From Candidatus Poribacteria bacterium (GTDB lineage Bacteria > Poribacteria > WGA-4E > WGA-3G): 64,000 nucleotides of DNA. Made by a program: the position numbers and the translations under genes. Under the pieces are notes generated by a model. That model saw nothing but the letters and a program-made list of their open reading frames with translations. It was not told the origin of the DNA and made no database searches. Below, one piece after another: positions 11,060 through 23,367 of this stretch; positions within the stretch are counted from its first letter, which is position 1; the number at the start of each line of letters is the position of its first letter. The stretch covers positions 3,168,001 through 3,232,000 of the forward strand of contig OZ244048.1 of assembly GCA_965215265.1 (NCBI GenBank), in the 5' to 3' direction.

Positions 11060-11971
11060 TTAGACGGATAAGGCCGAGGCGTTGCGCAGCTGCGCTTTTA
11101 TTGCAACCCACATGATGCCATCTTCCGCTTCGCTCTTAACTTCAAAAGACTGAAAACCGTTTGTTGCCAGAACCGATTTAACTTGTGCTTGTTCCGCATG
11201 CAAAATTCCGGAGAATATGACGATTCCTTCAGGATGCAGGTGTTCGGCACAGCTTGGGATAATTGGGAGAATCGCTTTCGTCAAAATGTTGCCAACGATG
11301 ACATGGTACCTGCCGCGTACACTTTTCAGGCCGTCTCCTTGAAACAGACGTACCCGTGCATTGACACCGTTGTTACGGAAATTTGTTTCTGCTACCGGAA
11401 TTGCTGTCGGATCTAGTTCAATAGCATCAACCTGTCTTGCGCCTAACTTCACCGCAGCTACGGTTAAGATACCGGAACCGGTACCTATATCGGCGATACA
11501 GTGATTCAAGCTTACCGTTTCTTCTAACAACTTCAAAGAGAGGCGTGTAGTTGGGTGGTACCCTGTGCCGAATGCCATCCCAGGGTCGAGACGAATTAAG
11601 ATGTCCGTTTGATTTGGAACGATGTCGGCCCAGGTTGGCGCGATGAGCATCCGGCTGCCGATTCGTTGAGGTGGAAAAGCAGTCTTCCAAGACTCTCCCC
11701 AGGCTTCAGATTCTACCCGTTCCAACGTGCATTCTGTTTGAGACGTGGGCGGGGTGCTAAATCCCCACGTCGGGAGTTGGGCAAGAAACTCTTGCAATTT
11801 CTGAAGTTTTGAACCGACCCGGTCATCCATCGGGTAGTAAGCGATGAGGCACGTCGTAGAAGCGGGGCCTTCTTTAATTTCAACGCCGAACGCATTCAAT
11901 CCAAACAGGTAGTTTGCAACCGCATCCGAAGCATCTTGGGAGATAGTTACCGTAATTTGCGCCCACTGCAT
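11060..11971 (-). CDS. prmA: Ribosomal protein L11 methyltransferase
   Basis: LDPGMAFGTGYHPTT and DIGTGSGIL; downstream of dnaJ. Confidence 0.95.
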   Translation of the reverse strand: MQWAQITVTISQDASDAVANYLFGLNAFGVEIKEGPASTTCLIAYYPMDDRVGSKLQKLQEFLAQLPTWGFSTPPTSQTECTLERVESEAWGESWKTAFPPQRIGSRMLIAPTWADIVPNQTDILIRLDPGMAFGTGYHPTTRLSLKLLEETVSLNHCIADIGTGSGILTVAAVKLGARQVDAIELDPTAIPVAETNFRNNGVNARVRLFQGDGLKSVRGRYHVIVGNILTKAILPIIPSCAEHLHPEGIVIFSGILHAEQAQVKSVLATNGFQSFEVKSEAEDGIMWVAIKAQLRNASALSV

Positions 11972-11995
11972 CTTTTTTTTTACATGTTATCATCA

Positions 11996-13087
11996 TTACC
12001 ACAGTTTGTGTTTGTTCCAAAAACTGCTGTGTTCCGTTTCACCGGTTTCCCCGAGCAATTCGGCGAATTCTTCTAACTTTTGGCGCTGCTTATCATTTAG
12101 ATGCTTTGGGATTTCGATTTCGACACTGACAACCAGGTCGCCTACACTCGAGCGTTTGTAGTGCGGTATACCTTTACCCGGGATACGCAGTTTCGCGCCA
12201 TACTGTGTTCCGGATGGAATCCGTAACTCTGCAGGTCCGTCAATCCCTTCAACGGTAATTTTTCCGCCGAGTGCTGCTTGAACAAACGAAATTCTCGCAG
12301 ACGTGAGTAAATCGTTCCGTTCGCGTTTAAAACGTTCATGTGGCAGCACATTGACAATCACGAAAAGGTCTCCGGGTGGTGCACCATTCCTACCGGCTTC
12401 GCCTTCCCCACGCAGCTGATACTTAGAACCGGTTTCAACGCCTTTATCAATATTGAGTTTGATATCGCGTTTCACACGGACGCGCCCTTGTGCATGACAT
12501 GTCTGACACGGCTCCGTAATAATTTCACCTTCACCCTGGCAGCGAGGACAAGTTCGGGACATTGTGAAAAAACCTTGTGAATGCGTGACCTGGCCCCTGC
12601 CGTAGCATTCTGAGCATTTTTCAACTCGCGCGCCTTTCTTCGCGCCGCTGCCTTCACACGTAGGACAATCTTCGATTCGCGGCACCTCGATTTTCACCTC
12701 TTTACCGTGGATAACATCCTGAAGTGTGATGTCAAGTTTGTATTGCAAGCTGCGTCCACGTTTGGGCGAATGCTGCCCACCCCCCACGAGATCGCCGAAG
12801 ATATTACTAAAAATATCGTCTAAGTTCACCCCGAACCCACTGAAGTCGCTAACGCTGTCCTCCACGCCTGCATGCCCGAACCGGTCGTAACGCCCCCGTT
12901 TTTCCGGGTCGCGCAGCACCTCATAAGCCTCAGTCGCCTCTTTGAATTTATCCTCAGCGGTTTTGTCACCTGGGTTCTTATCCGGGTGATATTGAATTGC
13001 AAGCTTGCGATAAGCTTTTTTTATTTCTTCTTCATCGGCTGTGTGCGTAACATTCAGAATTTCATAATAGTCGCGTTTTTGCGTCAT
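11996..13087 (-). CDS. dnaJ: Chaperone DnaJ
   Basis: J domain with HPD; four CxxCxGxG-type zinc repeats. Confidence 0.97.
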
Positions 13088-13189
13088 TTATCCTACCTAC
13101 CTATTGCTCAATGTTAGGATTCATCTCATCGGAAGTAATATTGGAAAGCCAAAGCCCACGTTAAAAAAACAGGAGAAGTGTTCTCCGGG

Positions 13190-13927
13190 CTACTCACTAA
13201 CCTCAGCCGTATCAATTTCGCCTGCATCTTCATCCGGCTGCGCTTCTTTTTTCTCTGGGGCTCCCTGAGAGACGACAACTTGCGCAGCGCGTATAACCCG
13301 CTCATGCAACAGATAGCCGCCCCTATATTCTTCAACGACCTTGCCTGCAGGTATCTCATCTGATTCCACTGCCAATATTGCTTCATGCCGCGTCGGATCG
13401 AATATTTCATGAACTGCTGCAATGGGGGTAAGTCCATGTTTTTTCAGTACATCCAACAACTGTTTTTGAACAAGTTGCATGCCTTCACTCAGCTTCGCGA
13501 CTTCTTCTGTATCCATGTTCTCAGTGTTGCTCGGGTCGGCTTTTGCGACGGCTTTTAACCCTAAATCCAAGCTATCCAACACAGGAACTAACTCTTCAAT
13601 AAGATTTTCGTTGGCGTACTTGAGTTGACGTTGCGTATCCGTTTCTAATCGTTTCTTTGCATTTTCTGCTGCTGCTGCCGTACGCATCAAAAGGTCGCGT
13701 TCTGCTTGATATCGTTCCCGCTCCTCGCGTTCAACAGTCTCTAATTTTTCTTTAAATTCCGCTTTTAATGCTTCTAGTTCTGCCTCTACAGTTTCAAGCG
13801 TTCGCACTTCCCGTGGCTCCCCGGGTTGTTTAGATGCATCTGCATCCTCGGTTTCTGGAGAGGCAGCAGTTGCATCAGGTGTTGTTTGCTTTTCTATATT
13901 TATGGGTATCTTTTTACCTTCAGACAT
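13190..13927 (-). CDS. grpE: Nucleotide exchange factor GrpE
   Basis: FDP..HEA, GY.LHERVIRAAQVVV. Confidence 0.95.
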   Translation of the reverse strand: MSEGKKIPINIEKQTTPDATAASPETEDADASKQPGEPREVRTLETVEAELEALKAEFKEKLETVEREERERYQAERDLLMRTAAAAENAKKRLETDTQRQLKYANENLIEELVPVLDSLDLGLKAVAKADPSNTENMDTEEVAKLSEGMQLVQKQLLDVLKKHGLTPIAAVHEIFDPTRHEAILAVESDEIPAGKVVEEYRGGYLLHERVIRAAQVVVSQGAPEKKEAQPDEDAGEIDTAEVSE

Positions 13928-13988: not shown

Positions 13989-14735
13989 TTAGCCATGAAT
14001 AGCATCAGCGAACTGTTTCATCAATTCAAAGGATCTATTTCCTTCAAGCACATTGCCTGTGACGATGAAATCGGCCCCTGCGTTTACTTTTTCGGAAGCG
14101 ATTTCTGGTGTTTGAATGCCGCCTCCAACAATCACTGGAATGCTCACTTGCGTTTTTATAACAGAGATAATCTCATTGGGTACCGGATGTTTAGCCCCGC
14201 TCCCCGCTTCTAAGTAAACTAACTGCATGCCCAGGTACTGGGCGGCGAGTGCATGTGGCACCGCAATGTCAGGCTTATCGCGCGGAATCGGCATCGTCCC
14301 GCTCATAAATTCAACAGCCGTACGGTTACCGCCCTCAATGAGTATATAGCCAGTAGGGATAGGTTCCAAGGCGTAACGCTGGATCCACGGTGCTGCTTTG
14401 ACCTGTTCAGCGATAAGATAATTTGGGTTGCGCCCACTGATGAGACTCGTATACAGAATCGCGTCTGCGTGTGGCGTGAGGTGCATCGAATCCCCTGGGA
14501 AAAGAACAATAGGAACGGATGTTTCCGTTTTTAACGCTTGTGCAACCGCGTGCAAATCGCACGTTAAAAAGCTCCCACCGAGTAAAATTATATCTGCGCC
14601 TGCCTCTTCAATGTCGCGTGCAAGTTTCGCGCACTTTGCAACCTGACAACTTTCCGGATCGATGAGAACAACATAGCCGGCGCTATATTTATCAAGTGTC
14701 TTATGGAAGTGGCTAAGAACCCAATCTGATATCAA
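13989..14735 (-). CDS. Geranylgeranylglyceryl phosphate synthase (GGGPS/PcrB family, group II-like)
   Basis: LIDP, GGS, FPG, ADAIL..SLISGRNP.YLI, PTGYILIEG, YLEAGSGA, VGGGI and GAD.IVTGN motifs. Confidence 0.9.
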   Translation of the reverse strand: MISDWVLSHFHKTLDKYSAGYVVLIDPESCQVAKCAKLARDIEEAGADIILLGGSFLTCDLHAVAQALKTETSVPIVLFPGDSMHLTPHADAILYTSLISGRNPNYLIAEQVKAAPWIQRYALEPIPTGYILIEGGNRTAVEFMSGTMPIPRDKPDIAVPHALAAQYLGMQLVYLEAGSGAKHPVPNEIISVIKTQVSIPVIVGGGIQTPEIASEKVNAGADFIVTGNVLEGNRSFELMKQFADAIHG

Positions 14736-14871
14736 ATCTAAACTGTCCTTAGAGGTATACGCTTAAAGGTATTTCCGCTGAAATGCCGAGCGATTTTCAG
14801 GCGAAACGTGTCTAATCCGAGCACCGGCAGAGGATGTTGTTTTAACCCCGACTCAAAAACTCTACTTAATT

Positions 14872-14900
14872 ATTTTACTACATTTCTCGTAAATTGTCAA
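14872..14900 (-). promoter_or_regulatory. sigma70 promoter upstream of GGGPS-grpE-dnaJ-prmA
   Basis: Minus strand TTGACA-17 nt-TAAAAT. Confidence 0.65.
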
Positions 14901-15004
14901 ATTCCAGCAGTATTTAGGCGTGCTCTTTTACGAACGGATTGCTTGCATCCACTGGGCCGCATCGCTTTCTGCCGCTTATCACGCTGCCATCGCATGCCGC
15001 TATT

Positions 15005-16201
15005 TTAAAGCCAGCCTGCTAAAATCAAGTGGCGCAGCTCAAGAAGCAATTGCGGTTGATGTCTTAATATTATTGTAAAAACTCGTCTCAATGTCATTTC
15101 TTGGGTTGGGATTTGAGAGAGGGTTTCTGCCCATCCATCTATATCATCGTCGCTAAATTTGTACATCCTGTCTCGGATACGACAGATCGCTTTAAAATTT
15201 TTACCAATCTCGCTATCCCACCGTTTGGGGTATGCGCTGAGCACGTTTGTGGAGACATCCCTGCTGCGGATAGCTTCTACGGCGACTTCTGCAGCGAATT
15301 TTCCGGAGTGCATCGCGTTCGGAATACCGCCTCCAGATATCGGATCGCTGTGATGTGCAGCATCTCCCACAAGCATGATGCCGTTTCCGATAATTTTTGG
15401 AAGTCCTTCTCCTACTGGTACTGCACCGCAAACCAACCCTAAAATTTTACCCTCCGGGAATTTGCGTTTCACAAACTCATTTAAGTAGTCTATTGCGAGT
15501 TTACCACTTCTGCCGCCCGAAAGTGCACCGTTGATGCCAATCCCGACGTTGGCGATGTTATCGCCTTTAGGAAACATCCATACATAGCCCCGCGGCGCGA
15601 CTTGGCGTCCAAAATAGAGGTCAAAATATGTCGGATCTATATCAATGTCTCCAAGAAGGTACTGAGCACAGATACCGACATCGTGCAGCGAGTGGGTGGT
15701 ATCAATGCCAGCCCACCGGCCGACCTGGGATTCAACCCCGTCTGCTGCGATAACGACCTTTGATTTGCAGGTATATTCTCGCCCTGAATATCTAAACACA
15801 ACCCCGTCAACGGTGTCATCATCCGATTTGGTAACCTGTGTCACACGTGCTTTCACTATCACCTCTGCTCCAGCAGTTGATGCCATTTCTGCTATAACCC
15901 GGTCGAAAACTTTTCGCTCAAGGACGTAGCCCGGTTTTGGCAAATGAATCGGGACTGCGGTTTCGTTCGGTGAAAACAGGCGGGCCCCTGGAATTTTGCA
16001 CGACACCCAGGCCGGATGCGGTTGAAGAAATTTGCACAGATCCTCTGTGCCTATGCCCTCCGCTCAGCGGATAGGGGTACCGATTTCTTGACGTTTCTCC
16101 AGCAGTAGCACCCGCAAGTCGTTTTCAGCAGCGACTTTCGCGGCAATGGAACCGCCCGGGCCGGCACCGACAACAATCACATCGTACTCAGAATGTCTCA
16201 T
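15005..16201 (-). CDS. Digeranylgeranylglycerophospholipid/geranylgeranyl reductase with an in-frame TGA at codon 46 (candidate selenocysteine)
   Basis: AGGAGG RBS and ATG at 16201; [18 protein letters not shown]...[18 protein letters not shown] continues in frame into the 15005-16006 ORF; [13 protein letters not shown] and GDAA...PISGGGI motifs. Confidence 0.88.
16034..16050 (-). promoter_or_regulatory. Bacterial SECIS-like hairpin downstream of the in-frame UGA
   Basis: Minus strand GCACAGA-GGA-TCTGTGC; a 7-bp stem starts 14 nt after the UGA, with a G-starting loop about 21 nt after it. Confidence 0.6.
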
Positions 16202-16262
16202 TCTACCTCCTATGGAAACCGCTTTTCCAAATTATTCTAAAAACTGCGTCTTTTGTCTCTAA

Positions 16263-16481
16263 TTAGAAAAGACCTCGCCCTGGGTACTCCGGATAGTAGA
16301 TCTTACCATTTCGTTCCATAGCCAGTACACCAACCGGACAGCCCTTCACGCACTTCATACAATCAATACACTTCGGCTGATCTATTTTTAAGTGTGTATC
16401 TACTAACTCAATGATATTTTCTGGGCATACAGCAACGCAGGCACCACAATAGACGCAGAGTTCCTCGTTAATATGAATCAT
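16263..16481 (-). CDS. 2x[4Fe-4S] ferredoxin
   Basis: AAGGAG RBS; CVYCGACVAVCP and CIDCMKCVKGCP. Confidence 0.93.
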   Translation of the reverse strand: MIHINEELCVYCGACVAVCPENIIELVDTHLKIDQPKCIDCMKCVKGCPVGVLAMERNGKIYYPEYPGRGLF

Positions 16482-17850
16482 TTTTAAGTTCTCCTTCGAG
16501 AGATAAAGGTTTGGCAACTGATTGGGACTGTTTATGCCGTACTAATTCATAGAGCAAAACGCCTGCGGCAACGCCTACATTGAGTGAAGATTGCCCGGCT
16601 GCCATCGGAATTCGGACCAAGTTCGGACATTGCTCACGCGTTTCTGCCGACAACCCTACGTTTTCATTTCCGACAATGACTGCAGCAGGGAGGTTAAACG
16701 TTGTGGAGTACAGCTCCTGTTCGGCACTCGCAGTTGCACCGAGTAGGAACCCGCCTGCTTTGTGCAATGTCTCAAGAACGGTTTGCAAATCTTTTGTATA
16801 GAACAAAGGCAAGCGGCCGACAGCTCCGCGTGCAGCACGAATACAGTTTTTATGAAAAGGGCTTGCTCCTTCGCCACTTAGTAAAACCGCGGATACACCT
16901 GCTGCATCGGCTGTTCGCAGTGTCATCCCTAAATTATCAGGATTCCCAATATTTTCCGTGATAAGCAACGTGCAGCCTGGGCTAAAATGAAAATTGAGTC
17001 CTCCGAATTTAGACAACGCATTGCGATAGGTGAGCTGCACCGAAGCAACGACTGATGGGACAGGCCGCGTTGTCGTAACCGAGCCCATCACGCCATCGCT
17101 CACTTGATAGTAGGGTAGATGCTCGGTATGGGCTTGTTTTAGGAGTGCAGCCCCGGCTCCGTGCTTCACAAGTTTTGGTGTATACAGCACTGTGTCAATG
17201 GGGAGCCCGTCATCAATCGCACGTTTCACTAACATCCGTTCTTCTACAATAAATCCGGAGTGTTCAAGTTTACCCTTCAAAGAAGTTAATTTGCGAAACT
17301 GCGATGTAATCGCATCCTTCCGTTTGGAAACAACTCGCTTTTCTAAGCGGGGGCTGCCGGTCAACGCCCCGCGTTTGATACCTCTATAAACCTGTTTTCT
17401 CTTCGGCTGAGCCTTGTCCTGTTTTTCGACCAGTTCTGCTGTTCGTTCGAATGAGGTTGTATGAATGTTGACAATTGTGCCTTCTAAGACTTCTGTTAAG
17501 GCATTGTACATCCATTTTGCTTGAACGTGAAACAGCCCGGTATATTGTCTTGGGAAAGTGAGTAGGAGCTCCCGCAAAGCCCTTTCGGTTGTTGCAGTGA
17601 GAGATACATAATACTCAGAAGCGGAATCTTGAGCTGAGGACACGTCTACCGGCGACATCAACATGACACCATCTAAATTCTGCCATCCTGCAACGCTAAC
17701 ATTATACGGAATGTGCCATTCACCGGTTTTGAAAAATGAGTGGTACGCTTGTTTGAAACGGTACACTGCGGCAGCATCCGTGCACTCTTTTTCCAAGAAG
17801 GCGATAACCTTGTCGTAGTTTAAGGGTTTAGCATCTATTAACATTGGCAT
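16468..17850 (-). CDS. TrmH/SpoU RNA 2'-O-methyltransferase with an unknown N-terminal extension
   Basis: NPDNLG...RTA.AAG, VGNE..GLS and IPM....SLNV SPOUT motifs. Confidence 0.85.
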   Translation of the reverse strand: MPMLIDAKPLNYDKVIAFLEKECTDAAAVYRFKQAYHSFFKTGEWHIPYNVSVAGWQNLDGVMLMSPVDVSSAQDSASEYYVSLTATTERALRELLLTFPRQYTGLFHVQAKWMYNALTEVLEGTIVNIHTTSFERTAELVEKQDKAQPKRKQVYRGIKRGALTGSPRLEKRVVSKRKDAITSQFRKLTSLKGKLEHSGFIVEERMLVKRAIDDGLPIDTVLYTPKLVKHGAGAALLKQAHTEHLPYYQVSDGVMGSVTTTRPVPSVVASVQLTYRNALSKFGGLNFHFSPGCTLLITENIGNPDNLGMTLRTADAAGVSAVLLSGEGASPFHKNCIRAARGAVGRLPLFYTKDLQTVLETLHKAGGFLLGATASAEQELYSTTFNLPAAVIVGNENVGLSAETREQCPNLVRIPMAAGQSSLNVGVAAGVLLYELVRHKQSQSVAKPLSLEGELKNDSY

Positions 17851-17969: not shown

Positions 17970-18827
17970 CTAAAGTGTTCCGATATAAATTGCACCCAGT
18001 CCAATGAAGATGTCCCACTTCATCCAGCGTTGGATGAAGGCACAGTTTTCTTTAGAAGCATCTCTCCATAACCGAATTCCTAAGCAAATGAGGACCACGT
18101 CCACGCCAAGTACAACAGCGGCTAAATAGAGAGTGGAGTACCACCCATATAGATAAGGGATAGGACTAAAGAGGATGACAGCTGCCATGAAACCTAATGC
18201 TATTTTCACGGCGAGCAGAGGATTGAGAATAGCAAGTGTTTTCACGCCGTTTTTGATGTCGCCTTCTGTATCCTCAATGTCTTTTATAATTTCGCGTGGC
18301 ATGGTAAAAAGAAAAGCAAATATTGCCGGAATGAGCGTTCCTTTCACTGAATCGATCGCTATTCCGCCAGCAATAAAGGTTAACCCAGTTAAGCCGCTGA
18401 CAACTAAATTCCCGATGAACGGTGTACGCTTCAGCCAGAATGCGTAGCAAACAAGGACGATAGAAACCAGCACCGCAATACCTAATGCGTAAATATTGAT
18501 ACACGCGCCAAGTGCTATGCCGATTCCGATCAGAATTATGGCGAAAATCAGCGCAGCACAACGACGGAGTCTACCCGACGGAAGCGGTCTCCGTTTCCGG
18601 TTGATTCGATCTATGTTATAGTCACAGTAGTCATTTATAGCGTTTCCTGCAGAAAGCAAGAAAAGTGCCGAGAATGAAACCAACAAGAGCCGCATGTCTC
18701 CAAGGGTTGTCAATTGGCCTTCGTTAGCAAAGATACCGCCGAGGCATGCAGAAATAAAAGCGATGAGCCCGTTAAGCGGACGTGCTAACTCAACATAAGC
18801 CACGAAGGTTTTGTGTATCGCGTTCAT
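17970..18827 (-). CDS. Digeranylgeranylglyceryl phosphate synthase (UbiA family, DGGGPS-like)
   Basis: ELARP.N, GNAINDYCD...DRIN...RPLPSG, LKR.P..GN and REIIKDIED.EGD motifs; multi-TM; start could be 18854. Confidence 0.85.
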   Translation of the reverse strand: MNAIHKTFVAYVELARPLNGLIAFISACLGGIFANEGQLTTLGDMRLLLVSFSALFLLSAGNAINDYCDYNIDRINRKRRPLPSGRLRRCAALIFAIILIGIGIALGACINIYALGIAVLVSIVLVCYAFWLKRTPFIGNLVVSGLTGLTFIAGGIAIDSVKGTLIPAIFAFLFTMPREIIKDIEDTEGDIKNGVKTLAILNPLLAVKIALGFMAAVILFSPIPYLYGWYSTLYLAAVVLGVDVVLICLGIRLWRDASKENCAFIQRWMKWDIFIGLGAIYIGTL

Positions 18828-18939
18828 CGGACAAAACAAGCGTAAGCCGGACACAGCGTTTATCGCAGCAGATGGGTCCGGAATTTACAGCGGCAAATAT
18901 GCTCAGACTGGCAGCTCCGGTATGCTGTCCTCCAGGGGC

Positions 18940-20010
18940 TTATTCTTCCTCCAATTCCTCAATTTTTGCTTCCAGTTGCTCAACACGTTTTTGGAGTTTA
19001 CTAAGCTCGGGTAAGAGTTCCGGTAGTTTTCGAGTTGCGGCATGAATTCGCAATTCTTGTCGATGTGGGCGTGCTGGGAATCCGGAGAGCCGGCTCCGTG
19101 GGGGCATATCCTTTGTGACAGCGGATTTTGCATAGACAATACTATCCTCACCGAGTGTGAGATGACCTGCCGCGCCTGCGTGCCCTGCTATATCGACCCG
19201 GTCGCCCAGGGTGCTACTCCCGGCTATACCGGCTTGCGCAGCTAGGCGGCAATCTTCCCCTATCACGACGTTATGGGCAATTTGAACGAGGTTATCCAAT
19301 TTGGACCCACGTTTAATCAGGGTTTCGGAACATGTTGCCCGATCAATCGTCGTATTCGCGCCAATTTCAACGTCGTCTTCAATAACAACTGTCCCAATCT
19401 GTGGAATTTTGTGGTGGAGTGGCGCATCTTCGCCGAAAAGACTGCCTGCCGGCGTGAAACCGAAACCGTCGCTCCCGATGACCGCCCCGCAGTGGATGAT
19501 CACCCGGTCCCCGATAGTTACTCGTTCCCGGATGCTAACGTGCGGGTAGATTAACCCGTCCGATCCGATTTTACTTCCTTCCCCAATGTAAACAAACGGA
19601 TGGATAACGGTCTTATCGCCTATTTCGACGTTGTCTCCAATGACAGTAAACGGTTGTATTGCGACATGCTCGCCGAGTTTTACGTTTTTTCCTAAAATCG
19701 CTGTCTCATCAACACCGGGCATCGTTTGATGCTGTTTATCGAGAGAGAACATTTCCAAAACTTGAACAAATGCCCAGTACGGATTCTCTACCCGGATCGT
19801 CGGCTTTCCATTGCCGGAGACACCACGTCCAATGATAATCGCAGCGGCTCGGGTCGTCGCAATTGCAGCAAGATACTTCGGATTTGCAACGAAGGTAATC
19901 TGGTTCGGAAGTGCATCTTTAATTCCTGAAACACCGGTAATCTCAATATCACCATCGCCGGATAGCTCGCCATCCAGTTTTTTACATATATGTTTGAGTT
20001 TCATATACAT
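18940..20010 (-). CDS. lpxD: UDP-3-O-acylglucosamine N-acyltransferase
   Basis: Hexapeptide repeats; GSDGFG, IPQIG.V, IDRA and KLDNLVQIAHN. Confidence 0.95.
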   Translation of the reverse strand: MYMKLKHICKKLDGELSGDGDIEITGVSGIKDALPNQITFVANPKYLAAIATTRAAAIIIGRGVSGNGKPTIRVENPYWAFVQVLEMFSLDKQHQTMPGVDETAILGKNVKLGEHVAIQPFTVIGDNVEIGDKTVIHPFVYIGEGSKIGSDGLIYPHVSIRERVTIGDRVIIHCGAVIGSDGFGFTPAGSLFGEDAPLHHKIPQIGTVVIEDDVEIGANTTIDRATCSETLIKRGSKLDNLVQIAHNVVIGEDCRLAAQAGIAGSSTLGDRVDIAGHAGAAGHLTLGEDSIVYAKSAVTKDMPPRSRLSGFPARPHRQELRIHAATRKLPELLPELSKLQKRVEQLEAKIEELEEE

Positions 20011-20085
20011 ATTTTCGTCTACTGGCGTACCGTCACGCTTTATGCTGTGTGAATGACAGTGTCCAGTTCGTCAGAGCCGCTTTAT

Positions 20086-20111
20086 GCTATGCCTAAGATA
20101 TCTCCGACGAG
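20086..20111 (+). repeat. Dispersed 26-bp repeat, copy 1
   Basis: GCTATGCCTAAGATATCTCCGACGAG; its reverse complement lies at 26860-26885. Confidence 0.8.
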
Positions 20112-20178
20112 ATTTGTAAAGGTTTTAACATTGCAGCAGCCTTTATGGTATTACAGTAGACAAAGGCCTTTCCTCGCC

Positions 20179-20724
20179 TTACTTGGAGTCTTCGTTCATT
20201 AATCCGATTAACCTTTGCGTTAAATCGTGTTTTTCGTCTACATAGAGGGTGATAAGTCGCTTTTCAAAGATGACATCAAAGCCTTCTGATTCACCAATTT
20301 GGCCGATCACAGCGCGAATTTCGTCAAAAATCGGCACCATTAGCTCCTGTTCTTTATCCAGGAGTGCTTGTTGACCTATGTCGACTTCACGTTGGTACTC
20401 TTGCTGCTTGAGGAGAATTTCCTGCTCCAAATCTGCTATCTGTGCATTCTCTACAAAGAGTGCTGTTTTTGTCTTTTTCTCTTGCAGCGTCCGAATCTCA
20501 TCCGCAAGGCTGCCCACCTTTGTCTTCAGACGTTCGCTCGCAGCTGTCAAAAGTGCCTCTGCATCCTTGGCTTTCTTGTAATTCTCAAGCACTTCTTGTG
20601 TATTGACAAAACCCATTTTAAAGGATTCTTGGCTGAGACTGCCTGAGCTTAAACATAAAGAGATAATAGAAATAATTAAGATAAATAGTCGTGCTTTGTA
20701 AGCACCCAACCGAAGTCGTTTCAT
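20179..20724 (-). CDS. skp: OmpH/Skp periplasmic chaperone
   Basis: Signal peptide, KMGFVN start of domain, coiled coil, DLT..I end; located between bamA and lpxD. Confidence 0.85.
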   Translation of the reverse strand: MKRLRLGAYKARLFILIISIISLCLSSGSLSQESFKMGFVNTQEVLENYKKAKDAEALLTAASERLKTKVGSLADEIRTLQEKKTKTALFVENAQIADLEQEILLKQQEYQREVDIGQQALLDKEQELMVPIFDEIRAVIGQIGESEGFDVIFEKRLITLYVDEKHDLTQRLIGLMNEDSK

Positions 20725-20772
20725 AATGTAATCCTCAAAGTCGCCGCATAAACCGACGGTACTCACGTTAAT

Positions 20773-23367
20773 TTAGAAGCCCGGACCGACTGTGAAATGA
20801 AATTTGCCTGCAGGCTCCCCTGTAATCCGATCGAAGCCGTATCCCCAACCGAGCCGAACTAACATGCCAAGCATCGTCAAGCGGGCTTCAGCTCCGACAG
20901 ACCGTTTCATGTTGATATTTGTAAAGACGTTTTTAACACTTTCATCCCAGACTTGGCCGATATCAAAAAACAGGGCTGCTGTCAGCTGCTCAGAGATAGG
21001 GATGCGATATTCAAGATTGGAGTAGAATACCTTATCCCCGCCATGCGGGTTGAAGGTATCCGGATATATCTCCCAGTCCTCGTAGCCACGGAGCGTATCG
21101 ACACCGCCTAGGAAAAACCGTTCGTAAAAAAGGAAGTACGAATCCTTGCTCTTACTCAGCATGTAGCCAGCCCGTGCATGCGCTGCGATAACGTGGTTCC
21201 ACCATGGACTGTAGAACCAGCTTGTATCAGCGGAATACTTCTGGAATTCGTTGTCTGCCCCCAAAATACCTCCGGAATACTCATAAGAAAGCGTGTGCAA
21301 AGAGCCATCTGTCGGATCAAACAGTGAGGTACGGTAGTCGCGTGTATCTCTGGCGACAGCAAACAGAATACTTCGGGTTGATCTGTCAATTAATTGTTCG
21401 TCTGGATTGGATGCTTCAATGTGTTCATTGCGGAAACGCACGGACAGGTCTATATCTTGTGTAATGGGGTGTCCCAACGTCACAGAAGCCCCTCTTCTTC
21501 CCCAGACATACCGGTCGTACAGATATGGGCTACGGATGCGACTCAGTGCAGCCCCAACTGTGCCGTAGTAACGGCGGAATCGCCTGTTATCGTAGAGTCG
21601 CGCGTTCAGCCGGGTCGGTGTCCCTAAAATCCAAGGCATCCCGAAGCTTACTTCCGCTGTGTGATGGTCACGTGTCCCTAATTCCCCTTTTAGGTGCAGG
21701 CGATACGCGCGGCCTCGGAAATTATTTTGTCCTACCTCGGCAACGCCGAAGATACCGCCTTCGCTGCCGTAGCCGCCGCCTAAGCTCAGCATCCCAGTTC
21801 GCGGCGTTTCGGCAATATTAACTCTTAAATCTTTACGGTTCTCATCGGGTGTATCACTCGGTACAAAATCGACAGCTCGAATAAAGGAACCCATTTGAAA
21901 TAAACGCTGCCGTGCTTTCCGCAGCGATTTTACATCTAGAAGCTCATCTGATTTGATGTTTAACCAATTTAACTCGCGTCTAACTACGTATTCCTTCGTC
22001 TTTTCTAACCCTGTAATCACGACGTTATTAATTATGATGACATCCCCTTGATTAATATTCAACGTGATGTTAACTAATCCATTGGCCTCATCAAACACCG
22101 GAATCGGGACAACCTCTGAAAGTAAGTAACCTTTATCAAGATAGGCTTGCTGTAGGTTTGAAATTGATTCATCAAACGTGCCGCGGTTGAAAATCTCGCC
22201 TTCTGCTGGATCCAGCATGTCGCGTATTTTATCTTCCGAAAAGGCGGCTTTTGTCCCTGATTGCACTTCCAGCGTATACGTGCCCATAATAAATTCTGGC
22301 CCCTCGTCAACTTTGATGTCCAAGATTAACCCTGTCCTATCGTCCGTGAATTCTTTTTCATATCCTAAGATTTTCACCTGGGCAAATCCCTTGTCCTGAT
22401 AATAGTTACGGAGGTTGAGACTCAAATCTTCTTCTTCAAACAGGATCTGATCAAAGTGTTTACCCATGCGCGTTTTGAGTTGCTTACGCAATTTTTGCGG
22501 GGGGAGTCGTTCATTTCCGATAAAATTGATTTCCTCAATTTTGACACGGGGGCCCTCATTTATCTCAAACGTGACTTGAATTGTATCATCTCGCGCGGAA
22601 TCTTCTATTGCTGTCTCAAGGTTAGAGTTCTCTCCACTTGTTGGTACAGCAGCCGAGGCACTGTCTTCGGACAAGTTAGGTACTGCAGTGTTTGAAACGT
22701 TGTTCTTTTCCTGCGAATCGGTATCTGTATCATAAAACGGGCGGATGTGTGTTTGGATGCTTACCAGATAGTAGCCTTTTTCGTGGTAAAGCTGCCGTAG
22801 GGCACGTTCGCTTTGCCATCGCTGCCGGTCGCTGTAGATTTCAAATGGACGGATTGTCAATTTATCCTTCAGGTTCCGATTCCCGAGTTCCTCATTGCCA
22901 ATAAAACTGATGCCGCCGATTTTTGGGCTTTCCACAACCTTATAGATAACCTCTAAGCCGCCCCCTTCAAAAGGCTCTACATCTACGGAGAGATCTGAAA
23001 AGAAACCTGTATCCTTATATAGGTTCTCTATATCTTGTGTCAGTAATTCTTCAGAGATTTCCTGCCCGACTTGCGTTTGAATGAGCGTGTGCAGCATGTC
23101 TTCAGACGTAGTTAAGACGCCTTTAAAAGAGATCTTCTTAACGAGGAACATCTCATCAACTTCAGGTTGTGCGGTTTTCGCCTTTGCGTCAGGTTGTTCT
23201 CCGGTATCGTTCTGAGTAGCAGCTTCGCTTTGTGGCTCTGTAGTGCGTTTCGGACCCAATACGGGTACGGCTTGTTCTTCCGCATCCGCTATACTAACAG
23301 GGAGGCAAAATGCGCTTGAAGCTGCAATTATCAAAGCGAAAAGGGTTTTTATTTTTTTCATGTTCAA
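20773..23367 (-). CDS. bamA: Outer membrane protein assembly factor BamA
   Basis: POTRA-like repeats, FFLGG..TLRGY motif, C-terminal Phe. Confidence 0.93.
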   Translation of the reverse strand: MNMKKIKTLFALIIAASSAFCLPVSIADAEEQAVPVLGPKRTTEPQSEAATQNDTGEQPDAKAKTAQPEVDEMFLVKKISFKGVLTTSEDMLHTLIQTQVGQEISEELLTQDIENLYKDTGFFSDLSVDVEPFEGGGLEVIYKVVESPKIGGISFIGNEELGNRNLKDKLTIRPFEIYSDRQRWQSERALRQLYHEKGYYLVSIQTHIRPFYDTDTDSQEKNNVSNTAVPNLSEDSASAAVPTSGENSNLETAIEDSARDDTIQVTFEINEGPRVKIEEINFIGNERLPPQKLRKQLKTRMGKHFDQILFEEEDLSLNLRNYYQDKGFAQVKILGYEKEFTDDRTGLILDIKVDEGPEFIMGTYTLEVQSGTKAAFSEDKIRDMLDPAEGEIFNRGTFDESISNLQQAYLDKGYLLSEVVPIPVFDEANGLVNITLNINQGDVIIINNVVITGLEKTKEYVVRRELNWLNIKSDELLDVKSLRKARQRLFQMGSFIRAVDFVPSDTPDENRKDLRVNIAETPRTGMLSLGGGYGSEGGIFGVAEVGQNNFRGRAYRLHLKGELGTRDHHTAEVSFGMPWILGTPTRLNARLYDNRRFRRYYGTVGAALSRIRSPYLYDRYVWGRRGASVTLGHPITQDIDLSVRFRNEHIEASNPDEQLIDRSTRSILFAVARDTRDYRTSLFDPTDGSLHTLSYEYSGGILGADNEFQKYSADTSWFYSPWWNHVIAAHARAGYMLSKSKDSYFLFYERFFLGGVDTLRGYEDWEIYPDTFNPHGGDKVFYSNLEYRIPISEQLTAALFFDIGQVWDESVKNVFTNINMKRSVGAEARLTMLGMLVRLGWGYGFDRITGEPAGKFHFTVGPGF

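Follow-up and report, generated by a model that had tools for sequence, protein, structure and literature searches.

How is a gene read when a stop codon stands where its relatives carry a catalytic cysteine? The question is raised by a gene on the minus strand of a 64,000-nucleotide stretch of DNA (hereafter the window, meaning the whole stretch that was analysed: contig OZ244048.1, positions 3,168,001 to 3,232,000) from a Candidatus Poribacteria bacterium whose genome is one contig of 4.83 Mb. The gene belongs to the geranylgeranyl reductase (GGR) family, and a single TGA interrupts its frame at the codon that aligns with the cysteine beside the flavin. From comparative sequence analysis, we conclude that it very probably encodes a GGR-family flavin adenine dinucleotide (FAD) enzyme containing selenocysteine (Sec). 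The elements that carry the argument, including a hairpin resembling a bacterial selenocysteine insertion sequence (SECIS), are the following.

16206..16211, minus strand: AGGAGG ribosome-binding site, 4 nucleotides ahead of the ATG, read directly from the sequence.

15005..16201, minus strand: coding sequence of the GGR-family flavoprotein, 398 residues with TGA codon 46 taken as Sec; TAA stop at 15007-15005.

16064..16066, minus strand: in-frame TGA, codon 46, the predicted Sec codon, in the column of the flavin-side catalytic Cys.

16034..16050, minus strand: SECIS-like hairpin with a 7-bp stem, GCACAGA/TCTGTGC, and the loop GGA, beginning 13 nucleotides past the TGA.

The table-11 list of open reading frames (ORFs) opens the gene only from the GTG at 16006, and public gene calls shorten the closest database proteins in a similar way, to 283-346 residues. 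The longer frame starts at the ATG at 16201-16199 and carries the motif GAGPGG at residues 12-17 of the read-through protein; within it, TGA codon 46 is the sole internal stop before the TAA. A start codon placed identically relative to the GxGxxG motif was found in 40/40 Sec-form loci examined. A preliminary description of the locus had proposed the longer frame on the strength of AGGAGG and the ATG at 16201, together with the GAGPGG motif, the TGA at 16066-16064 as codon 46 of a 398-residue protein free of other lesions, and the GCACAGA-GGA-TCTGTGC hairpin just 3' of the TGA. All of these were confirmed in the sequence, with the loop of the hairpin beginning 20 nucleotides past the TGA.

The membership of the read-through protein in the GGR family is clear from its scores of 229.5 bits against the NCBIfam model TIGR02032 (cut-off 158.8) and 86.4 bits against Pfam GGR_cat (PF22578; cut-off 27). 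No selenoprotein-specific model was found among its best 25 NCBIfam matches, and the genome carries no GGR_cat gene besides this one. The family motifs, as defined in the accessible text of PMC10821996 and PMC6309074, are all present in the translation: GxGxxG, RxxFD (here RKVFD), PxxYxWxFP (here PRGYVWMFP, residues 203-211, P203-P211), LxGD and GGG. The best solved relative is 3oz2_A, the digeranylgeranylglycerophospholipid reductase of Thermoplasma acidophilum (E = 1.1e-73, covering residues 5-393 of the read-through protein), which shares with the Poribacteria protein its family, its full-length architecture and its active-site column; the same holds for the chains of Sulfolobus acidocaldarius GGR (3ATQ/3ATR/4OPx), which match with E ~1e-30. 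In the alignments, the TGA falls on the Cys of the 3oz2 motif 'PVRCGEG' and on the equivalent Cys of the Sulfolobus chains. These archaeal enzymes have Cys at the position, whereas the gene described here, in a bacterial host, has a TGA, so that the column, if the codon stands for Sec, is filled by the selenium analogue of Cys and not by a literal Cys. According to the available portions of PMC10821996, this flavin-side Cys is kept in all archaeal GGRs and is catalytically essential in the Sulfolobus enzyme, where it is named Cys47 (PMC10821996, PMC6309074). It is described as a critical redox modulator behind the isoalloxazine ring in the accessible part of PMC6309074, while in that of PMC10821996 a role in electron transfer or flavin modulation is only 'speculated'.

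We searched 176 genomes of the phylum for orthologs (E <= 1e-50) and found one in 56 of them. An ortholog was present in 42 genomes of the window's order (families f1-f4), and 41 of these covered the TGA site; TGA was present in 41/41, at 64-100% identity. These comprise 39 rows with a single TGA plus G028 and G094, of which the N-terminal parts were read; the 42nd ortholog, in G068, is a fragment at a contig end. Outside the order, orthologs were found in 14 genomes, and the 13 that covered the site had TGT or TGC without exception (13/13). The Cys-form GGRs of these other Poribacteria (families f5-f11) are orthologous to the Sec form, with 47-62% identity. Some of the more distant ones (P0082-P0099 and others; G041, G042, G056) are about 460-480 residues long and include a 4Fe-4S ferredoxin Pfam domain that occurs in none of the Sec forms, which suggests that the long proteins may carry a fused electron donor.

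A quick maximum-likelihood tree placed the 37 intact Sec forms in one clade (SH-aLRT 99), nested inside a succession of archaeal sequences and of the phylum's Cys-form lineages; the tree leaves out rows with fewer than 380 residues (G028, G141, G094, G055, G043), and G130 lies outside the set. One Sec clade nested in Cys forms fits a single Cys-to-Sec change, by which a Cys form would have given rise to the Sec form just one time, at the root of this one order of Candidatus Poribacteria. A search of genome contigs for GGR returned 4 loci, namely two from Poribacteria, one from Methanoliparum (43% identity) and one match of 34 residues. Among the best 150 of 15003 representatives of 50%-identity clusters, none was shortened just after residue 46, which is a weak test, and four N-shortened representatives begin at query residues 20, 31, 85 and 91.

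An assembly or base-call error in place of TGC or TGT, the default worry with a single assembly, has nothing specific in its favour and a negligible probability, since TGA stands at the site in 40 different genomes and no difference is listed at 16064-16066 in the contigs of four studies that span these positions (X1, one of the four, may be the window's source sample). Another of these contigs comes from a strain for which 9 substitutions are listed in the stretch, including a synonymous one 4 nucleotides from the TGA. No RNA data set holding the stretch was found among the listed sequencing runs, which has no bearing on whether the gene is expressed.

The codons ahead of the TGA behave as coding sequence. 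Over the 44 codons upstream of it in 40 distinct sequences, variable third positions numbered 44/44, variable first positions 22 and variable second positions 12; 79% of codon differences were synonymous, and in-frame stops numbered 0, compared with 60 and 67 when the sequences are read in either of the remaining frames. This is the signature of codons that are translated and under purifying selection. Leaving the TGA aside, 37 Sec-form copies are intact, at 397-398 residues. A nonsense pseudogene, left dead by the mutation of its Cys codon to TGA, would need just one base change from TGT or TGC, and it could draw on the shortened public gene calls and on the 3/40 TGA-form copies that have further breaks. 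It is nevertheless hardly credible for a gene with the TGA in every covering ortholog of the order over a wide range of identity, with both halves under purifying selection, with so many copies otherwise whole, and with a covarying hairpin accompanying the TGA. The breaks in the three copies lie after the Sec codon and consist of a frame change at locus L041 (G028), an extra TAG at L054 (G141) and a frame break at L079 (G094); these may be decaying copies or assembly errors.

The hairpin 3' of the TGA was analysed for stability, conservation and covariation. The 50 nucleotides from the TGA fold with -17.7 kcal/mol (z = -3.10), and 1/200 shuffles was as stable. In an alignment of 19 orthologs, the stem was paired in 97% of cells, against 10-61% in controls in which the pairing partner was slid, and the first base of the loop was an invariant G. 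Compensatory changes were seen in 3/7 stem pairs, with 12 doubly changed cells, and the covariation score of the hairpin was reached by 0/500 shuffles. Some of the compensatory changes also alter the peptide (GTEDLC, GAEALR, GAPALH), indicating that it is the RNA pairing that is kept and not the peptide. At the fixed offset from the site, 40 Sec forms showed 7/7 pairs in 32 cases and 6/7 in 8 (one via an N), whereas 13 Cys forms showed just 1-4/7 pairs; the Cys-form genes thus differ from the Sec forms both in TGT or TGC at the site and in having no hairpin at this offset.

In E. coli formate dehydrogenase H, an in-frame UGA is followed within about 11-13 nucleotides by a hairpin with a G in its apical loop. 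The Poribacteria GGR gene resembles this system in its UGA, its close hairpin with a loop G and the presence of selA, selB, selC and selD in the genome. Its hairpin, with 7 bp and a 3-nucleotide loop, is shorter than that of formate dehydrogenase H and has no evident bulged U, and we regard it as a candidate SelB site.

All four genes for Sec synthesis and insertion were identified in the genome above their curated cut-offs: selA scores 588.6 bits and selB 336.5 bits, tRNA-Sec (selC, 80 bits) lies directly after selB, and selD scores 359.6 bits. The selD gene (G000:C1:4044300-4045226, plus strand; locus L001, ~1500-1560) has one in-frame TGA of its own, in the N-terminal '...KCAG-TGA-ASKL...', and is a candidate selenoprotein gene. 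Across the phylum, selA was found in 163/176 genomes, and in 39/41 of those with the TGA form. In G057, the closest Cys-form lineage, the selA match (G057:C45:3723-5078) includes one internal TAA, and the gene may be broken. Poribacteria are also one of the phyla for which the available text of PMC13582414 reports group 4 [NiFe] hydrogenases in a Sec variant. A genome-wide recoding of TGA is ruled out because TGA terminates 7/42 long ORFs of the window.

A further alternative is that the UGA is passed without selenium, either through a near-cognate tRNA that inserts Cys or Trp or by a split of the gene's output into an N-terminal peptide of 45 residues and a C-terminal protein restarted downstream. 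UGA is the leakiest of the stop codons, and the in-frame GTG at 16006 could serve as a restart. We consider this very unlikely in a genome with the complete Sec machinery and in a gene with a conserved, covarying hairpin at SECIS distance that is confined to TGA forms. A restart, moreover, would cut the FAD-binding fold and lose the essential active-site residue, and the restart points of public gene calls vary between proteins of 283 and 346 residues, so that there is no single conserved restart.

Several observations weigh against the presence of a Sec codon served by this hairpin. The hairpin is short, and an Rfam scan of 14800-16400 returned no SECIS match, its lone result being a chance-level sR38 (15 bits vs 50, E = 1.4). 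The count of doubly changed pairs (3) was reached in 60/500 shuffles, and the sequences compared are related. When 7-bp stems were sought at any offset, the 13 Cys forms yielded 7/7 pairs in one case, 6/7 in ten and 5/7 in two; stems thus arise at some offset in Cys forms as well, and the argument rests on fixed position and conservation, not on the existence of a stem. A comparison with the region after the TGA of selD, made on a segment starting 2 nucleotides into the codon, gave no convincing fold (z = +0.76) and says little either way. No selA was found in two genomes with the TGA form, G066 (90% complete, 730 contigs) and G094 (95% complete, 300 contigs), both fragmented. The tree (52 rows, midpoint root) comes from a quick search and is provisional, the careful search being unfinished, and the three copies broken further downstream count on the same side.

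Set against these points, the evidence for a Sec codon is of several kinds. The preliminary description had called the product a Sec-for-Cys selenoenzyme, and the TGA column, its conservation, the hairpin and the Sec genes support this, with the insertion of selenium itself following by inference. The checks that it proposed came out in the same direction: the TGA falls on the conserved Cys of solved archaeal GGRs, relatives divide cleanly into TGA and TGY forms along the phylogeny, the hairpin is a conserved, covarying feature of TGA forms alone, selA, selB, selC and selD are all in the genome, and assemblies from four studies carry the TGA. We regard it as well supported that this is a real Sec form of a known enzyme family and not a new kind of system. 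UGA46 would be decoded by Sec-tRNA(Sec), brought by SelB bound to the 7-bp hairpin 13 nucleotides downstream, in the standard bacterial SECIS mechanism, and selenium would in this way be inserted at position 46. Sec46 would replace the essential Cys beside the isoalloxazine ring and take over its part in the hydrogenation of isoprenoid double bonds by reduced FAD. The presence of Sec may speed up or toughen the flavin-side redox step. Natural Cys/Sec pairs, by a principle of the selenoprotein field, mark redox-active catalytic residues; the GGR Cys would accordingly take part in C=C reduction as a redox or nucleophilic catalyst, and not as a passive flavin neighbour or a simple proton donor.

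Which isoprenoid chains such an enzyme might act on is suggested by the neighbouring genes, two of which resemble genes for geranylgeranylglyceryl phosphate (GGGP) synthase and digeranylgeranylglyceryl phosphate (DGGGP) synthase.

13989..14735, minus strand: PcrB-family (hepta/geranylgeranyl)glyceryl phosphate synthase, the downstream neighbour; Pfam PcrB 152.9 bits.

16468..17850, minus strand: SpoU/RlmB-like methyltransferase gene between UbiA and GGR; Pfam SpoU_methylase 117.3 bits, residues 296-434.

17970..18854, minus strand: UbiA-family prenyltransferase, upstream; Pfam UbiA 147.3 bits, nearest to models of DGGGP-synthase type.

The PcrB gene exceeded the cut-offs of TIGR01769 'GGGP' (222.3 bits vs 161.55) and NF003198 (286.4 vs 247). 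The UbiA gene remained below those of its best NCBIfam models, NF009523 (218.3 bits vs 269) and NF009521, geranylgeranylglycerol-phosphate geranylgeranyltransferase (200.4 vs 296). The order UbiA-GGR-PcrB, whether or not it includes the SpoU-like gene, is seen again in family f1 (genus g1) and in f2, f3 and f4; UbiA directly flanks GGR in f4 and some f3 loci, and the SpoU-like gene adjoins GGR in many f2 and f3 loci as well. PcrB adjoins GGR in 26/38 loci examined, or in 24/36 genomes, as two of the loci are duplicates, and Cys-form GGRs of the other families also often adjoin PcrB (neighbouring coordinates on the same contig in G057, G048, G041 and G056). The SpoU-like protein itself scored 122.6 bits against TIGR00186, below the cut-off of 160.15; it has 460 residues, with the SpoU methylase domain confined to 296-434 and a long N-terminal part that has no assigned domain. 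Beyond the lipid genes, the window holds an outer-membrane biogenesis set on one flank (18940-23367, minus strand: LpxD, an OmpH/Skp-like protein and a BamA-type Omp85 protein with POTRA repeats), and GrpE, DnaJ and PrmA on the other (11060-13927, minus strand).

The distribution of these genes over the phylum is uneven. Two large genera of the window's family are mostly without GGR, which is present in 8/40 and 5/65 of their genomes, and keep the PcrB gene in 33/40 and 62/65, respectively. In genus g11, GGR and PcrB occur together in only 1/20 genomes.

The flanking GGGP synthase and the DGGGP-synthase-like UbiA protein suggest that the enzyme saturates the isoprenoid chains of ether lipids. 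We consider the saturation of prenyl chains of glyceryl-ether lipids its most likely role, with a probability somewhat better than even, and its substrates would then be the polyprenyl chains of lipids made by the neighbouring GGGP synthase and UbiA-type prenyltransferase. The preliminary description had likewise assigned the enzyme to the saturation of isoprenoid lipid chains; the two flanking genes lend this support, and the role stays an inference.

The main alternative is a true Sec enzyme that acts on another substrate, such as a quinone side chain, a polyprenol or free prenyl diphosphates, and we judge it the less likely outcome, though one of real weight. The GGR family also holds menaquinone, heptaprenyl and chlorophyll-side-chain reductases, represented by the MenJ and BchP/ChlP models and mentioned in the accessible text of PMC10821996. 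The equivalog models for lipid reductases were all missed: the protein scored 274.7 bits against 780 for digeranylgeranylglycerophospholipid reductase (NF041160), 174 against 580 for NF041080 and 98.4 against 700 for NF041385, and we therefore file it at the level of the GGR family only. PcrB is present in 144/176 genomes compared with 56/176 for GGR, which rules out a strict co-inheritance of the two genes, and it is not adjacent to GGR in 12/38 loci, all of them in three genera of family f1. Of five Fe-ADH_2 matches, a single ORF leans towards glycerol-1-phosphate dehydrogenase, and it is a weak candidate (124.8 vs 413 bits). All of this weighs against an ether-lipid substrate. On the other side, archaeal lipid reductases match best by far, the NF041160 score comparing with 82.3 bits for MenJ and 141.5 bits for BchP/ChlP, and 3oz2 being the best solved relative; the UbiA-GGR-PcrB order recurs in genus g1 of family f1 and in f2, f3 and f4; and the genome has no second GGR_cat gene.

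As to whether such an enzyme has been listed before, we found no Sec-containing GGR in full-text literature searches; supplementary tables and closed-access surveys fall outside their scope, and an earlier listing there is possible. Look-up by term in the accessible text of the 2022 and 2026 reviews of prokaryotic selenoproteomes, the deep-Sep study and the Global Ocean Sampling survey (PMC13188914, PMC9312934, PMC12013277, PMC2398784) gave no geranylgeranyl entry, and that of the 2026 review had no entry under TIGR02032, PF01494, PF12831, PF22578 or PF01266. The only FAD entries met in the selenoproteome tables, as far as these were available, are CoA-disulfide reductase and type III sulfide:quinone reductase. 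In these listed Sec enzymes (PMC13188914, available portions), a redox Cys beside the flavin is replaced by Sec, as in the Sec-GGR, but they act on sulfur or disulfide substrates, whereas GGR, a member of a different flavoprotein family, hydrogenates the C=C bonds in isoprenoids. The preliminary description knew of no characterised Sec-GGR and allowed that surveys might have listed one; its first statement agrees with the searchable texts, and its reservation still applies to supplements and closed journals. The decoding mechanism seems to be ordinary for bacteria and the enzyme family is known, so that what seems new is their combination. The stronger claim, that this is the first selenoenzyme of isoprenoid or membrane-lipid saturation, with Sec in place of the essential GGR Cys throughout a whole Poribacteria order and inside an archaeal-type ether-lipid gene set of a bacterium (UbiA/DGGGPS-like, GGR, GGGPS), appears to us evenly poised between true and false.

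GGRs hydrogenate unactivated double bonds, and a natural Sec form with close Cys sisters is a ready pair for probing what the Cys does. According to the accessible text of PMC6309074, GGRs are explored for making reduced isoprenoids; the kinetics or oxygen tolerance of a Sec-GGR may differ and may thus be of interest to biotechnology, and the enzyme is of interest to the selenium and lipid-biosynthesis fields alike. Since public annotation cuts these genes to 283-346 residues, reconstructions of lipid pathways in Poribacteria would score the reductase as a fragment. To the discussion of the lipid divide, the locus contributes a cluster of archaeal-type ether-lipid genes that is well conserved in bacteria of this group, and, if the Sec reading is true, selenium biology would reach from the chemistry of sulfur, formate and hydrogen to the saturation of lipids and isoprenoids.

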